A stretch of 64,000 nt of DNA from a virus. The DNA lies in IMG/VR virus record IMGVR_UViG_3300010218_000006, positions 1 through 64,000 of that record; one strand, 5' to 3'. Shown in pieces: positions 36,396 to 41,841 of this stretch. The first letter of the stretch is position 1. Each line of letters opens with the position of its first letter. The notes beneath the pieces were generated by a model. That model searched no databases, was not told the DNA's origin, and saw nothing but the letters and a program-made list of their open reading frames with translations. The translations under genes were made by a program, and so were the position numbers.

Positions 36396-36482
36396 GGAAA
36401 TGTTTGAGATTTGTCAAACAATGATGCCTAGAAACAACAATGTGACGTGGCTACAACAATTTCTCAAGCATGAGAATTTCTA

Positions 36483-36511
36483 TTGACACAGGGTATTTAT
36501 ACCAATAGAAT
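36483..36511 (+). promoter_or_regulatory. promoter TTGACA-N17-TAGAAT (rightward operon)
   Basis: TTGACACAGGGTATTTATACCAATAGAAT. Confidence 0.65.
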
Positions 36512-36538
36512 GAGCAACAATTCAACAAGGGAGGGCTT

Positions 36539-36835
36539 ATGAAAGCTAGCGATGTTTTAAGGAAGGCTGCTGAAGATATCAGTAATCAAATGAATTACGA
36601 CGATGCCAACGGGTGTTGTGATGCTATAGAGCATGCTTTCGGAGGCTGGCACGAGTACCCAGACGCCAAGTATCGTGCTTATGAGGATTTGAGAGATTTG
36701 TTTGAGAATGAGGAGGCGTACTGGTTTGGGCTACCTTGGACAGAAGACAATACAAGAGTAAATACAGAAGCACAAAACCACCGAATCATTGCCCTTCTGT
36801 TGACAGCAGATATGGCAGAAAGCGTGGGAGACTGA
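36539..36835 (+). CDS. hypothetical protein
   Basis: 98-aa ORF with a GGGAGGGCTTATG RBS. Confidence 0.55.
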   Translation: MKASDVLRKAAEDISNQMNYDDANGCCDAIEHAFGGWHEYPDAKYRAYEDLRDLFENEEAYWFGLPWTEDNTRVNTEAQNHRIIALLLTADMAESVGD

Positions 36836-36836
36836 T

Positions 36837-37043
36837 ATGACAGACAAAGAAAAATTGGAAAAGTTGCTGACGGAGTTTGGTGTAAAATTTAGTATTGGGC
36901 AACAAGAGGGCTGGCATGACACCATCACTGTGATAGAAAACTTGTACGACCGCAACTCAAAGGTAGGAGGCTATTGCGGTTTTTACACAACATTCGTCTT
37001 TGATAAAACTGGTAAATTTATTAGCATGGGAGCATGGGAATGA
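36837..37043 (+). CDS. hypothetical protein
   Basis: 68-aa ORF, coupled. Confidence 0.5.
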   Translation: MTDKEKLEKLLTEFGVKFSIGQQEGWHDTITVIENLYDRNSKVGGYCGFYTTFVFDKTGKFISMGAWE

Positions 37044-38077
37044 CTGAGCGAGCACTGGCAACAATTCGTAAGATTGACGAAATTAAGACACATCCTAACG
37101 CGAATGCATTGGACATTGCTGTTATTGACGGATGGCAATGTGTAGTCAAGCGAGACGAATACAAGGCAGGAGATATTGTAGTGTTTTGCGAAATCGACTC
37201 TTGGATTCCCGACAGCATTGCCCCATTTCTCAGTAAAGGTAAGAAGCCACGAGAATATGAAGGTGTTGCAGGAGAACGTCTACGTTCAATTAAGCTTCGT
37301 GGGGAGTTGTCACAGGGTTTGGTACTTCCTTTAACTGGCTTTGACGCTTACTTTAAAGACGCTGGTAAAACATTATTTAATGTCGGAGACGATGTTACAG
37401 TCTTCCTAAACATCAAGAAGTGGGAAAAGCCCATCAACCCGCAGCTTGCGGGGCTTGCAAGAGGAAACTTCCCGTCATTTATCCGCAAGACAGATCAGGA
37501 ACGCATTCAGAATCGATTTAAACGCATCTCTGAAGAACAGAAGCAAGACTTGTATGAAGTGACGTTGAAGATTGATGGAAGCTCTTGTACGTTCTACCAT
37601 AAAGATGGGGAAGTGGGAGTATGCTCTCGTAATCTTGAGCTGAAGACGGATGAGAGTAACGCTAACAATATGTACGTCAAAATGTTCAATGATCTTGGCT
37701 TGCGTGATAAACTGACTAATCTCGGCCTGAATATTGCTATTCAAGGAGAGCTTTGGGGAGCAGGGATCAACGGAAATTGGGAAGGTATTTCGGATGTCCG
37801 CTTTAATGTGTTCGACATTTTTGATATTGACAAACAATCCTATATGAATGCAACAGGTCGTCGCAATATCACAGAAATGCTAGGACTGGACCATGTACCC
37901 GTGATTGAGCATACAACTCTTGAAAAGTTCAACTCTGTTGCAGATTTTCTTGCTTATGCAGATCGTCCGAGCATTTATAATAAGGTTGCTGAAGGCGTGG
38001 TTTTCAAGTCTATTTCAGCCCCGGATTTCAGCTTTAAAGCAATCAATAATAATTTCCTTTTGAACGGAGGAGAGTGA
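37034..38077 (+). CDS. RNA ligase (N-terminal OB-like domain plus adenylyltransferase domain)
   Basis: Motif I KIDGSSC, EGVVFK (motif IV-like), and an N-terminal IKTHPNANALDIAVIDGWQCVV OB-like module as in DraRnl-type ligases. Confidence 0.65.
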   Translation: MGMTERALATIRKIDEIKTHPNANALDIAVIDGWQCVVKRDEYKAGDIVVFCEIDSWIPDSIAPFLSKGKKPREYEGVAGERLRSIKLRGELSQGLVLPLTGFDAYFKDAGKTLFNVGDDVTVFLNIKKWEKPINPQLAGLARGNFPSFIRKTDQERIQNRFKRISEEQKQDLYEVTLKIDGSSCTFYHKDGEVGVCSRNLELKTDESNANNMYVKMFNDLGLRDKLTNLGLNIAIQGELWGAGINGNWEGISDVRFNVFDIFDIDKQSYMNATGRRNITEMLGLDHVPVIEHTTLEKFNSVADFLAYADRPSIYNKVAEGVVFKSISAPDFSFKAINNNFLLNGGE

Positions 38078-38209
38078 ATGCCTACATTGTACGAAATCAT
38101 CAAGTCCTTGCAAACAACGCAAGGCAGTAATGCAAAGCAAGCAATTCTTGACGCGAACAAGAATAATGAGTTGTTGCGGGAGTATATGAAGGCTGTTGCA
38201 TTCTTCTAA
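38078..38209 (+). pseudogene. diverged relic of a DNA ligase 5' end (43 codons)
   Basis: MPTLYEIIKSLQTTQGSNAKQAILDANKNNELLREYMKAV aligns with the ligase N-terminus MELYNIIEQLKNAEGTKEKQRILDNNKDNELLKAYFKAI. About half the positions are identical by eye. Confidence 0.7.
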
Positions 38210-38217
38210 AATAAGTT

Positions 38218-39189
38218 ATGAAATTACCTAGTAATAAGAGGTTCATAAACCTTGAAAGCCGACAAATTGACGACATAACAGTTCTAAAATATATCGGCAA
38301 GAGCAAGAACAAACAATCTTTATACCTTTGTGAATGTGTGTGCGGCACGCGGGTAAGCCGCTCGTATTCGACACTTATAGGTAAAGGTAACCATAATTGC
38401 GGATGCAAAAAGAGGCTAAGATTTACTGCAAAGATGTCAAGAGGGTGGGAGCACCATGCGTACCAGATAGCTAATCTGATACCAAATTATTTTGCTGTCG
38501 ATGTTAAAGATGGGAAATGTACATCTAGCTGGAAATTTTATTGCAACGTTTGTGGAGAGTATTTTGAGCGGTCCCCAAATAGGCTTAAAAGGCATCCAGA
38601 CGTGTACCCATGCTCCTGTAGGTTTCTGATTAACGAAGACATCCAATCTGTTGAAGATGAAATAGGGACTGCCTGCGCAGCCGCAAACATTATTTTTGTC
38701 GGGTGGGTAACGGACAAGTACCTTGGAAGAACTAGCACATTTGTTCACGTAAGCTGCCCTGTACACAAGGACGTAAAGACTGTCTCAGTATCAGAGTTAA
38801 TAAACCACCAAACTGGTTTATTATGCTGTGCTACCAGAGGGTTTAAGACAAACCGTGAAGGCTATTTTTATCTGACTAGATGGAATACAGAAGATGGATG
38901 GTTTTTGAAATTTGGTATAACAAACAATGTCAAAAAGAGATTTAAGACGCAAAAATCTAAAACTTCTGTTGACGGTTGCCTACTACTTTCTGTAAAGTTT
39001 GATGTAGGCACATTGGCAAAACAACTAGAAGACGTGTTTAAGGAAAACTTTAAGGGCGGCTATGTAAGTAAGCAACTATTTCCAGATGGCTATACAGAAA
39101 CATTTGAAAGACTAAGGTTTTTAGAGGCAGTGAGCCTAGTAACAAACTTCATTGAAAAGGCGGGACATGGAACTCTACAATATTATTGA
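38218..39189 (+). CDS. homing-endonuclease-like protein (Cys-rich N-terminal domain plus T5orf172/GIY-YIG-superfamily C-terminal domain)
   Basis: CECVCG...GNHNCGC motif shared with 18932..19702. The C-terminus reads GYFYLTRW...FLKFGITNNVKKRF. Confidence 0.55.
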   Translation: MKLPSNKRFINLESRQIDDITVLKYIGKSKNKQSLYLCECVCGTRVSRSYSTLIGKGNHNCGCKKRLRFTAKMSRGWEHHAYQIANLIPNYFAVDVKDGKCTSSWKFYCNVCGEYFERSPNRLKRHPDVYPCSCRFLINEDIQSVEDEIGTACAAANIIFVGWVTDKYLGRTSTFVHVSCPVHKDVKTVSVSELINHQTGLLCCATRGFKTNREGYFYLTRWNTEDGWFLKFGITNNVKKRFKTQKSKTSVDGCLLLSVKFDVGTLAKQLEDVFKENFKGGYVSKQLFPDGYTETFERLRFLEAVSLVTNFIEKAGHGTLQYY

Positions 39190-40546
39190 GCAACTAAAAA
39201 ACGCAGAGGGTACAAAAGAGAAGCAACGCATACTCGACAACAACAAAGATAATGAATTGCTTAAAGCATACTTTAAGGCAATCCTTGATCCATCCGTGTC
39301 CTATTACCAAACAACTCTACCTAAGTTTGCAAACGCACCAGAATCTTGCCGGCTGCCTTTCAGATTTAGCACGCTTGATCTACTCAAATCTCTTTCTGAA
39401 AGACGTGTTACGGGAAATACTGCTAAAGAGTATCTTGCGCGTGGAGTGTTATCAATATCTGACGACGAAGCTCAAGAACTTATTGAGCACATCATCAAGC
39501 GCAAGATTGCAGGAGCAAATGTTGGAGAAACTGCGGTGCTGAAGACATGGCCCGGATTGTTCTTTGTTCCCGGATACATGCGCTGTAGTTTGATGACGGA
39601 CAAGATTCGCAAGCACTTTGAAGGGCTAGATGCAATTATCTGTCAAGTAAAGGCTGACGGATCGTTTCTGTACTTGATGAAGCGCCCGAATGAATACCCT
39701 AAGGCGTTCACCCGTAATGGTAACGCATACCCTCGATGGCTGGCTATACTGCTAGGAGATGGCTTGCCAGAAGGTGTGAATGTCGTCCTTGCAGGGGAGC
39801 TATTGGTATATCCAGCGGGGCAGTGTCAAGCGTTTCCGCTATCCCGTAAAGAGGGTAACGGAGTGCTGAATTCTGTCCTTCAGGGCGAGGACATTGAATC
39901 GTTTGATGAGTACAACTTCTGCATGCAAGCGTGGGATGCACTTCCTGTTAGGGATTTTGAAGAAGGCTTGTGCGAGATTGAGTACACTCATCGCTTCGAT
40001 AAGCTCTTAAAGTTCGCAGATGAGTGTCCTAACATCGAAGCGATTGAATCACACGTTGTCAACAATCTTGAGGAAGCCTACAAAATTTATTCCAAATACA
40101 CAGCAGCAGGCTTTGAGGGAGCTGTCATCAAAGACCCTTCGGCTCCTTGGAAGGATCACACAAGTCCTTTCAATGTCAAGCTGAAAATTGAGTTTGAATG
40201 TGAGATGAAAATCACAGGCTATTACGAAGGCGAAGGAAAAGCCAAAGGAATGCTGGGAGGCTACACAATGGCATCTTCTGATGACAAAATCGTGACGAAT
40301 GTCGGCTCAGGATTTTCTGACAAGCAACGTAAAGATGCGTGGGAAGCAATTTGCAACGGAGACTCGCCTACAGGATACATTGCCACAATCAAAGCGAATG
40401 ACATCATCTCGAAAGAGGGAAGCAATGTTGAGAGTCTGTTCCTGCCAATCTTTATTGAGCATCGCTATGACAAGAATGAAGCGGACAGTAGCGAACGCAT
40501 TCATGCACAATTGGAAGCCGTGAAGAATGGAGGGGTGAAATGCTAA
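39167..40546 (+). CDS. ATP-dependent DNA ligase
   Basis: Motif I QVKADGSF, GELLV (III), FEGAVIK (IV), NVKLK (V). Start set at Met6. Confidence 0.8.
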   Translation: MELYNIIEQLKNAEGTKEKQRILDNNKDNELLKAYFKAILDPSVSYYQTTLPKFANAPESCRLPFRFSTLDLLKSLSERRVTGNTAKEYLARGVLSISDDEAQELIEHIIKRKIAGANVGETAVLKTWPGLFFVPGYMRCSLMTDKIRKHFEGLDAIICQVKADGSFLYLMKRPNEYPKAFTRNGNAYPRWLAILLGDGLPEGVNVVLAGELLVYPAGQCQAFPLSRKEGNGVLNSVLQGEDIESFDEYNFCMQAWDALPVRDFEEGLCEIEYTHRFDKLLKFADECPNIEAIESHVVNNLEEAYKIYSKYTAAGFEGAVIKDPSAPWKDHTSPFNVKLKIEFECEMKITGYYEGEGKAKGMLGGYTMASSDDKIVTNVGSGFSDKQRKDAWEAICNGDSPTGYIATIKANDIISKEGSNVESLFLPIFIEHRYDKNEADSSERIHAQLEAVKNGGVKC

Positions 40547-40842
40547 ATTGCTACGGACTCGATGCACACTACTTCAAAGAGAAGCTGTCGTTAATTGTGA
40601 GAGACATCAATAGTTACACTCCCGAAGAACTGAAGCGAGAGCTTGAGAAGCTTGTTAATGTGTTGGACAGAGGGGAAGTGAATAAACATACTGAAGATGA
40701 ATTACCGACACGATATTCAACAGTAGCTTATATGGATGTTTTGGCCTTCAGTGATTTAGAGCACGAAATGTATTGCAATAAAATAGAAAACGTGTTAGGT
40801 GGTCTTTCCTTTGTTAATAGTGTTGAGTGTGGTGAGGTGTGA
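40540..40842 (+). CDS. hypothetical protein
   Basis: 100-aa ORF overlapping the ligase stop. Confidence 0.5.
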   Translation: MLNCYGLDAHYFKEKLSLIVRDINSYTPEELKRELEKLVNVLDRGEVNKHTEDELPTRYSTVAYMDVLAFSDLEHEMYCNKIENVLGGLSFVNSVECGEV

Positions 40843-40965
40843 ATAACCTTTGATTTTTGTCAACATCGGAACTTTTCTAACGGGTACAGTGTCTACATGG
40901 ACAGCGAAACAAAGAAACGCTTCCAGAAACAACTTACTTGACACAACCCCTTAAAGGAGAATCAC

Positions 40966-41841
40966 ATGAACGCAACGAAAGCACAAGCTGCAACGCATAC
41001 CACAGCATCTTTCCAAAAATCTGAAAAGGAACGCGCAGCAATCCTTTCCAATGGCAATATTGCAGAAGCTTCACAGCCTGCCAAAGCAGCATACAAGCCT
41101 GTGACAATGAAAGCAATGATTGATGCCATCTCTGATGCAGGCGCTTGGAGCAAGCAAGCCCTTGAAATTGAGCTTGCAACGGGCTTGGCATTGTTTGTTG
41201 AGAATGACGGAGTGAGCCTTGCCTCGAAGAAGCTGCTGCAAGACATTTACGGCCAAGCAGGTTATAAGGTGGATAGTATTTCTGCCGCTGACTATAAGAC
41301 ATGCAGACGCCGGATCGATGCAAGCTCAGAACTCTATCAGCACATCGGACACGACGAAATCGTTTCTTGGATTGGCCGCGCAAAAGACCGCAATGCCATT
41401 CAGAAGATTGTTACCAATCTGGAACAATACAATCTGACAGGCATTCAGAGCGTGTTTACTCTTGTTGGCAAGAAGCAGGCTGCGAAGGATAAGGCAACAT
41501 CTCAGCCATTAGCAGCCCCTTCGCAGAAGCCTTCAGAGGCCCCACAAGGCGCTGAACAGCCCTCGGCAATAGCAGCACAAGGGGGAGCTGAGAAAACGTC
41601 TCCTGAAGGCTCTCAGCAGTCTTTAAATGACACGGCCAAACTAATAGGAGCTGCTGTTGCGGAAGGACGGGCTGCACGAGGACGTAGAGCAAGTGATGTT
41701 GAAGGAGCTGTGACAATCAAGACAGCACACCTTGCAATTACTGTTGCTCCTGATGTGCCTAAGGAAGAATTGATGGAGATGAGCATGAAGCTACTGGAAT
41801 ACATCAACACAATGCAGGCACAGGAAGCAGCAATACATTGA
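40966..41841 (+). CDS. hypothetical protein with low-complexity Ala/Gln/Pro linker
   Basis: 291-aa ORF with an AAGGAGAATCACATG RBS. Confidence 0.55.
   Translation: MNATKAQAATHTTASFQKSEKERAAILSNGNIAEASQPAKAAYKPVTMKAMIDAISDAGAWSKQALEIELATGLALFVENDGVSLASKKLLQDIYGQAGYKVDSISAADYKTCRRRIDASSELYQHIGHDEIVSWIGRAKDRNAIQKIVTNLEQYNLTGIQSVFTLVGKKQAAKDKATSQPLAAPSQKPSEAPQGAEQPSAIAAQGGAEKTSPEGSQQSLNDTAKLIGAAVAEGRAARGRRASDVEGAVTIKTAHLAITVAPDVPKEELMEMSMKLLEYINTMQAQEAAIH

Follow-up and report, generated by a model that had tools for sequence, protein, structure and literature searches.

A relic of the resident DNA ligase head beside a homing-endonuclease-like gene points to probable one-sided intronless homing in an uncultured phage

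Why would a phage genome carry the start of the same DNA ligase twice, with an endonuclease-like gene between the two copies? The question is raised by a locus of the IMG/VR virus record IMGVR_UViG_3300010218_000006, of which we analyzed a stretch of 64,000 nucleotides (nt), here called the window. The source phage is uncultured and 82 kb in size. At this locus, four open reading frames (ORFs) lie head to tail on the + strand: an RNA ligase gene, a 43-codon ORF, an ORF of 323 amino acids (aa) that resembles homing endonucleases, and a DNA ligase gene. The 43-codon ORF is best read as a stub of the resident DNA ligase, and the working ligase downstream is a mosaic whose head would have arrived together with the endonuclease-like gene. 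The explanation that we favor is one-sided intronless homing, in which a cassette replaced the head of the ligase. The features of the locus are as follows.

37034 to 38077, + strand: RNA ligase gene (347 aa), left flank, resident, with stop codon TGA
38078 to 38197, + strand: relic (stub) of the resident DNA ligase, codons 1 to 40, 37 of 40 aa matching the start of the closest relative's ligase
38198 to 38217, + strand: left junction filler, consisting of 3 new codons (Ala-Phe-Phe) and TAA, then an 8-nt spacer to the endonuclease ATG
38218 to 39189, + strand: free-standing homing-endonuclease-like gene (323 aa), with CapR/DUF723-type repeats and a T5orf172-like C-terminal domain (GIY-YIG superfamily)
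39167 to 39484, + strand: DNA ligase head (codons 1 to ~106), very likely foreign, with low identity to both relatives and no blastn alignment
39485 to 40546, + strand: body of the DNA ligase, codons ~107 to 459 (adenylation and OB domains), apparently resident, 80% aa identity to both relatives

The 43-codon ORF occupies positions 38078 to 38209. Its ATG, at 38078, directly follows the TGA of the RNA ligase gene and its TAA lies at 38207 to 38209, exactly where the first-pass annotation of this DNA had placed the ORF. The same annotation had noted by eye that its product is colinear with the N terminus of the ligase 1.1 kb downstream and identical to it at roughly half of the residues. This was borne out by BLASTP, which aligned the two N termini colinearly and without gaps, with 20/37 residues identical (54%), 27/37 positive, and an E value of 6e-12. 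The resemblance is highly significant by a shuffling test as well: the Smith-Waterman score was 105, compared to 26 ± 4 (maximum, 48) in 5000 shuffles of the peptide, none of which reached 105. When 568 ORFs of 30 to 80 aa from the window were compared with its 44 ORFs of at least 150 aa, the stub and the ligase were the only pair below an E value of 0.008. Moreover, the 43-aa peptide alone matches the start of PHROG 114, "ATP-dependent DNA ligase" (profile positions 88 to 124, E value of 7.6e-6), a profile that the intact ligase enters at position 89. When twelve ligase N termini were searched against the related loci examined, two copies of the head were found only in the window, and no other locus had a second one.

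The origin of the stub becomes apparent from relatives that lack the endonuclease gene. The closest relative, IMGVR_UViG_3300045391_001467, is 81,754 nt long and identical over 69 nt at both ends; it is probably a complete, circularly closed genome. Its RNA ligase is 80% identical in aa to that of the window, and the TGA of this gene overlaps the ATG of an intact 457-aa ligase beginning MSTLYEIIKSLQTTQGNNAKQAILDANKDNELLREYMKAV. The contig break of this record falls inside the ligase gene, and because of this the ligase appears truncated (361 aa) in the protein database. Across the junction of RNA ligase and ligase, an independent metagenome contig, Ga0310811_10000222, matches the closest relative at 100% identity and likewise has both genes on a single contig. 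A third lineage (L077/P0170; JGI [Joint Genome Institute] 3300037418, contig Ga0395900_0009950), recovered from another sample, is likewise without the endonuclease gene. A near-identity DNA search of positions 37000 to 40600 against 50,697 phage records gave no match; the phage has no cultured close relative.

The stub matches the ligase start of the closest relative at 37/40 aa (92.5%) and 101/120 nt (84%), the codon differences being 13 synonymous and 3 nonsynonymous, and it is 84.6% identical in nt to L077. The blastn block of 75% identity that joins the window to the closest relative (37028 to 38196) runs uninterrupted from the RNA ligase into the stub. In the endonuclease-less relatives, the stub sequence is the start of an intact ligase and not a conserved gene of its own. 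Since these relatives have an intact ligase start of the stub type, the stub is taken to be the resident 5' end. The first-pass annotation had regarded the upstream copy as the diverged one. The reverse turned out to be the case: the stub is the conservative copy (37/40 aa, 84% nt), while the head of the functional ligase is the outlier (54% and then 33% aa). We consider it very likely that the stub is the resident ligase head and that the cassette is foreign.

The DNA ligase of the window is a T4 gp30-like ATP-dependent enzyme (Pfam DNA_ligase_A_M, 3.1e-13; DNA_ligase_OB_2, 5.6e-7). It matches PHROG 114 at 7.8e-100 over residues 1 to 453, and its KxDG motif is present as KADG in QVKADGSF. Annotated phage ligases, the Vi01 Gp30 ligase among them, share 31 to 34% identity with it over 97 to 98% of its length. 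It is colinear with the ligases of the relatives, with no intein-sized insert. Identity to the two relatives is distributed along the protein as follows.

Ligase codons 1 to 40: window versus the two relatives, 54 to 60% aa; relatives versus each other, 93%
Ligase codons 41 to 105: window versus the two relatives, 32 to 33% aa; relatives versus each other, 51%
Ligase codon ~106 to the end: window versus the two relatives, 80 to 81% aa; relatives versus each other, 84%

The body is 74 to 76% identical in nt to both relatives, which is comparable to the flanking genes. The head, in turn, is no closer to the two relatives than to phages whose ligase body is only 43 to 58% identical. Base composition at third codon positions (G+C fraction, GC3) is 0.34 in the ligase head and 0.38 in the endonuclease gene, versus 0.50 in the ligase body and 0.55 in the stub. 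The working ligase thus reads as a mosaic in which a foreign head has been joined to a resident body. The earlier proposal that the resident ligase was replaced by an incoming allele therefore holds for the first ~105 codons and fails for the remainder, which is of resident type from about codon 106 (80% aa). Its broader claim of a past invasion, in which an endonuclease gene and an incoming ligase allele left the old 5' end behind, is supported by the two endonuclease-less relatives.

The breakpoints can be placed to within about 10 nt. The closest relative aligns by blastn to window positions 37028 to 38196 (75%) and 39485 to 40542 (74%), and L077 aligns to positions 38090 to 38193 and 39475 to 40693; L077 and the closest relative are contiguous with each other over the whole ligase. 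Homology to both relatives hence ends at 38193 to 38196 and resumes at 39475 to 39485. Between these points, a segment of 1,287 nt (38198 to 39484) stands in place of 196 nt (resident codons 41 to 105) of the closest relative. The left join lies around ...AAGGCTGT|TGCATTC..., and the 20 nt of filler are all the incoming sequence that lies 5' of the endonuclease gene. On the other side of that gene lies a co-conversion tract, of foreign type over ligase codons 1 to ~106 and of resident type from 39475 to 39485 onwards. The endonuclease gene is absent from both relatives and present in the window and in a 98%-identical strain and is thus polymorphic for presence and absence.

On the right, the junction lies directly against the best-conserved part of the ligase, EHIIKRKIAGxNVGETxVLKTWPGLFF, which is 87% identical in nt and would be a natural place for a homologous crossover. 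Just to the right of the junction, positions 39485 to 39590 (codons ~108 to 140) are 82 to 87% identical in nt to the closest relative and 75% identical at third positions, versus 57 to 87% and 20 to 70%, respectively, in the rest of the ligase body. Judged from this conservation, the stretch could be a recombination anchor or a recognition site.

The head itself would come from a distant lineage outside the sampled sequences. A word-index protein search and a metagenome scan with head peptides found no donor, and the best match in an exhaustive phmmer search of 1.84 billion representative proteins was only 45 to 47% identical, in a library clustered at 50% identity in which a donor with a ligase body of sampled type could be hidden.

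The mosaic bears directly on another history, an in-place duplication of the first 40 codons that would have left one copy on each side of an inserted endonuclease gene, with one of the two diverging afterwards. The two copies are indeed in tandem around the endonuclease gene and colinear. However, such a history predicts neither that the nonfunctional copy is the conservative one (92.5% aa, versus 54% for the functional copy, relative to the closest relative) nor that GC3 differs between the copies (0.55 versus 0.34). The unduplicated codons 41 to 105 have also been replaced, by sequence in which no nucleotide homology to either relative can be detected, and copying 40 codons cannot explain this. 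In-place duplication is therefore unsupported and very improbable. The same replacement by nonhomologous sequence argues against the second history offered by the first-pass annotation, an endonuclease-associated duplication of a cleavage-resistant target. A history in which the relatives had lost the endonuclease gene was also considered and set aside: a deletion could not have recreated resident-type codons 41 to 105, and the other related loci have neither the gene nor a relic.

Since the window derives from a metagenome-assembled contig and only the window sequence was shown to cover the left junction base by base, we considered whether the junction of relic and endonuclease gene might be an assembly chimera. 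A JGI contig of 82,048 nt matches the window at 100% identity. The same proteins are found in the same neighborhood in three contigs of 50 to 200 kb, and the endonuclease-ligase side is confirmed by the 98%-identical strain, which comes from another sample and spans this junction. Furthermore, both junctions give sensible in-frame ORFs, and the right one is a clean homologous transition within a gene. An assembly artifact is accordingly the least credible of the explanations weighed here, with next to no probability.

What, then, is the gene that lies between the two ligase heads? It is a free-standing ORF with its own ATG and stop codon, in a frame different from that of the stub (140 nt separate the two starts). 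No Rfam family, group I and group II introns included, was detected at an E value of ≤1 in positions 36400 to 41000. The N-terminal part of the protein passes the Pfam threshold for CapR in two stretches (33.1 bits versus a cutoff of 24.2), and conserved Cys pairs recur along it (C109, C132, C180, C201, and C204). The protein matches PHROG 681, "endonuclease," at 9e-38, and its homologs carry PF05265, PF21817, and PF14311. All positions that are invariant across 17 homologs are retained (Y218, K231, G233, I234, T235, R241, E271, and G291 to T295), making up the motif FYL...KFGIT...R241...E271...GYTET. In an AlphaFold model, the C-terminal domain has a predicted local distance difference test (pLDDT) score of >93, and the whole multidomain model has a predicted template modeling (pTM) score of 0.44. 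This model matches 194 viral proteins in BFVD at an E value of ≤0.001 (best, 3e-21), under names such as CapR homology, T5 Orf172, and homing endonuclease. On the basis of PHROG 681 and the structure matches, the label "T5orf172-type endonuclease-like" given in the first-pass annotation is a reasonable one, although Pfam alone would be insufficient for it.

The endonuclease gene differs from that of the 98%-identical strain by 10 synonymous and 4 conservative nonsynonymous changes, which suggests that it has been maintained and, together with the retained invariant residues and the modeled fold, that it may be active. The public gene call starts the protein at Met73 (251 aa); the ORF is open from 38218 (323 aa), and homologs align from the N-terminal zinc-ribbon region, within the part encoded by 38218 to 38433. 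Distant homologs, at <30% identity, are carried by 355 cultured-phage genomes, including Vibrio phage MW824372. A scan of viral contigs for relatives of the endonuclease found none. The best full-length homolog, P0002, adjoins a terminase and not a ligase, and no such gene lies beside the ligase in Aeromonas phage 4L372XY, which holds the best structural match to the endonuclease, or in Stenotrophomonas phage DLP_6, which holds the best ligase match.

Overall, one-sided intronless homing, with a cassette replacing the ligase head, is probably the best explanation of this locus. The mosaic ligase, the breakpoints, and the presence/absence polymorphism are what we observe; a narrower claim is that the endonuclease set off the transfer and that repair was one-sided, and to this we attach moderate probability. 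The ancestor would have had the arrangement of the closest relative, in which the RNA ligase stop is directly followed by the start of a T4 gp30-like ligase. In a mixed infection, the endonuclease would have cleaved a ligase allele that had no endonuclease gene, at a site between codons ~40 and ~105 that probably lies in or close to the conserved YMKAV-D-x-x-INYYQ motif at the end of the stub. To the right of the cut, resection into the conserved ligase core would have allowed homologous strand invasion, and the donor would have been copied leftwards, first through the ligase head and then through the endonuclease gene. To the left of the cut, nothing ahead of the donor's endonuclease gene would have been homologous, since the sequence preceding the ligase varies among relatives: L077 has small ORFs instead of the RNA ligase, and two further loci (L062 and L065) differ too. 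With no homologous partner on this side, the ends would have been joined illegitimately, 20 nt ahead of the endonuclease ATG, making the homing one-sided. If, as we presume, the cleavage site is missing from the foreign head, the invaded genome would be immune.

The locus also suggests how its genes might be expressed after such an event. The stub has retained its ATG with a strong native ribosome-binding site, GGAGGAG, 5 nt upstream, and is probably translated from them. In the 8-nt spacer before the endonuclease ATG, no Shine-Dalgarno-like motif was seen by eye. Because the endonuclease ATG lacks a ribosome-binding site of its own, the protein may be made at a low level, through translational coupling to the stub stop codon 8 nt upstream. 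Translation of the ligase would start within the 3' end of the endonuclease gene, at a site that would have arrived with the cassette. Its ATG, at 39167, lies within the last 23 nt of the 323-aa ORF and is the position that aligns with the starts of the relatives' ligases, although the ligase ORF also contains a TTG farther upstream, at 39152.

Several points weigh against this scenario, some concerning the enzyme and others the event. The C-terminal domain scores below the Pfam cutoffs both for T5orf172 (16.2 bits versus 20) and for MUG113 (16.5 to 16.9 bits versus 22.3), and the full-length model retrieved no solved structure from the Protein Data Bank at an E value of ≤0.001. To our knowledge, no structure of a T5orf172 domain appears to be available. 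Apart from the 98%-identical strain, homologs reach 26 to 43% local identity over 29 to 96% of the query, and the best full-length one is 26% identical. That the protein is a nuclease, where it cuts, and that the foreign head is immune are all predictions. Translational coupling is a reasonable guess from spacing alone, and the local RNA fold at the endonuclease start is no better than that of shuffled sequences (z = 0.31), with no sequestering hairpin. The donor lineage was not found in the searches described above, and with it is missing the sequence preceding its endonuclease gene, which would show any microhomology at the left join. Finally, the 5' region of the ligase is mosaic also in relatives with no endonuclease gene nearby, so that recombination independent of an endonuclease could give the same kind of mosaic.

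This last point is the basis of the most serious alternative: modular recombination by an illegitimate or short-homology exchange, with the endonuclease gene as a mere passenger beside the donor ligase. A second mosaic joint of this sort is seen in ~90-kb phages that are ~76% identical in nt on both sides of it. There, L065 (5680 to 5733; also L064) lacks two small genes that L062 (5036 to 5733) has and differs from it in the first 18 ligase codons, and no endonuclease gene is nearby. L077, as mentioned, has other genes in place of the RNA ligase, and the ligases of the closest relative and of P0170 are 93% identical over codons 1 to 40 and only 51% over codons 41 to 107. On the other hand, in the window the endonuclease gene lies exactly between the breakpoints, with no more than 20 nt of extra sequence on its left, as expected of a break-initiated copy with one co-converted flank. 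In addition, the gene is intact and appears to be under purifying selection, and genes of its family reportedly sit at the edges of such tracts of recombination (PMC10448857). We therefore regard endonuclease-independent recombination as unlikely, and one-sided homing remains the reading that we prefer.

A different question is whether the 43-codon ORF is a decaying relic at all. It might be a maintained functional element, either a leader ORF for coupled expression of the endonuclease or a microprotein. Its intact ATG, strong native ribosome-binding site, and freedom from internal stop codons would be in agreement with this, as would its stop codon, only 8 nt ahead of an endonuclease start that lacks a ribosome-binding site, and the 13 synonymous versus 3 nonsynonymous differences from the closest relative. 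An excess of synonymous changes is, however, also expected if the invasion was recent, as most of the divergence would have accrued in working ligases. Moreover, no relative has the 43-codon ORF as a separate gene, and forty codons are too short for a test of selection. We find a functional element distinctly unlikely; it would in any case concern the present use of the ORF and be compatible with the same origin.

How does this locus compare to known systems? Its closest analog is found in fungal mitochondria, where mobile ORFs (mORFs) have been described in atp6, atp9, cox2, and nad3 of Glomus sp. (PMC3630166) and, as cited there, in atp6 of Allomyces macrogynus (Paquin et al. 1994). In these cases, an endonuclease ORF came with a foreign C-terminal segment that is fused to the resident gene, and the native C terminus remains downstream as a relic; in Glomus atp6, the relic is 91% identical in nt to close relatives but only 63.5% identical to the inserted copy (PMC3630166). 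Similarly, an endonuclease ORF and a foreign gene end are joined in frame to a resident core here, with the native relic adjacent, and it is the relic that is nearest to close relatives (84% nt, versus no nucleotide alignment for the foreign head). Unlike in the fungal mORFs, the 5' end has been replaced and the relic lies upstream, a mirror image of their replaced 3' end and downstream relic. The host genome is that of a bacteriophage, and the endonuclease is of the CapR/T5orf172 type rather than LAGLIDADG or canonical GIY-YIG. In further contrast, the relic has a start codon and a ribosome-binding site and is probably still translated. The likeness is one of architecture, and no homology of the elements is claimed.

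Among phages, intronless homing by free-standing endonucleases is known from the T4-like group (SegB, SegF, SegG, and MobE; PMC2988022). The present locus shares with the Seg/Mob cases a free-standing endonuclease gene beside a conserved gene of DNA metabolism, its presence or absence between related genomes, and a co-converted flank that makes the neighboring gene a mosaic. Crosses with engineered T4 have demonstrated one-sided homing with illegitimate repair of the double-strand break (Parker, Belisle and Belfort 1999, as summarized in PMC2988022), and in that summary, too, a homologous crossover on one side is combined with a nonhomologous join on the other. The characterized T4 cases nevertheless differ in that the insertion is intergenic, is flanked by homology on either side, and does not duplicate any part of a gene. 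In the window, the join is inside the target gene and a 40-codon duplicate is left. In Aeromonas phage Aeh1, nrdA is split by mobE (Friedrich et al. 2007, as cited in PMC2988022). According to that citation, a free-standing endonuclease gene likewise lies inside the coding region of an essential DNA metabolism gene whose function is kept, but both halves are used there and reassemble as a protein. The upstream piece in the window is redundant instead, because the cassette brought its own complete replacement head.

In ICP1 and other phages, genes that combine CapR/DUF723 and T5orf172 have been described as homing endonuclease genes that border exchanged tracts, with Vibrio phage MW824372 as an example of the T5orf172 family (Barth et al. 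2023, PMC10448857). The gene studied here resembles them in its zinc-ribbon repeats (CapR/DUF723/DUF4397) followed by a putative C-terminal T5orf172/MUG113-like domain and in its position at the boundary of a tract exchanged between related phages. It differs by its great distance, being 20 to 26% identical to all homologs except the one in the sister strain. In the searched text of PMC10448857, duplication is mentioned only within endonuclease genes and not for the end of a target gene. Likewise, no report of a phage endonuclease cassette that left a duplicated gene head was found in the open-access full texts searched, which is a weak negative.

The locus is thus a new example of a known process, with an unusual by-product, and not a new kind of system. 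Its value lies in being a natural before-and-after pair for homing, with an invaded genome, two uninvaded relatives, and breakpoints known to ~10 bases. This makes several points testable, namely, the target site of a divergent endonuclease (predicted within codons ~40 to 105), the immunity of the co-converted allele, and the natural operation of one-sided illegitimate repair, which has so far been shown only in engineered T4 crosses. It also illustrates that a phage enzyme annotated as one gene can be a recent chimera of two lineages, which matters for ligase phylogenies, and that standard pipelines call the 43-codon ORF as a gene.

A bolder proposal would be that the endonuclease gene and the replacement head of its target form a self-sufficient cassette for intragenic invasion, the phage counterpart of the fungal mORFs, and that the stub has been co-opted for low-level coupled translation of the endonuclease. 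We think this rather unlikely and offer it as speculation. If it were true, such a cassette would land in an essential gene without an intron or intein by carrying the part that it displaces, and, needing homology on one side only, it could move between phages of differing gene order. If it also recurred, homing endonucleases could quite generally give rise in this way to the mosaic 5' ends seen in this ligase family.

Some observations concern the surroundings of the locus. The RNA ligase is supported by Pfam (PHA02142 OB-fold, 1.1e-27; RNA_ligase, 1.8e-23) and by PHROG 968 (4.5e-93). In L077, positions 56 to 1082 correspond to window positions 36782 to 38077 and hold three to four small ORFs in the place of the RNA ligase, and just upstream of them are short blocks of homology to window positions 36782 to 36884. 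From these alignments, the RNA ligase appears to be itself a variable insertion/deletion gene in this phage group. In two other phages, GIY-YIG-like ORFs adjoin the RNA ligase (L003, 2918 to 3595, + strand; L008, 3623 to 4306, - strand) and start with MIYLY(I/V)KTH..TGLKYFGKT. The one in L003 has a subthreshold match to NUMOD3 and is flanked on one side by the RNA ligase and on the other by a different ATP-dependent ligase that is only 311 aa long. The neighborhood of the RNA and DNA ligases seems to attract endonuclease genes belonging to more than one family.

Finally, a scan of positions 36400 to 41000 for promoters and terminators gave no excess over shuffled sequences and no site at the junctions. 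The simplest view is that the four genes form one transcription unit, and the lack of such an excess fits with their cotranscription. The best sigma-70-like site of the region lies at 36483 to 36511 on the + strand (TTGACA, a 17-nt spacer, and TAGAAT; 11/12 matches). Located just upstream of an ORF at 36539, it could be the promoter of an operon comprising the RNA ligase, the stub, the endonuclease gene, and the ligase.

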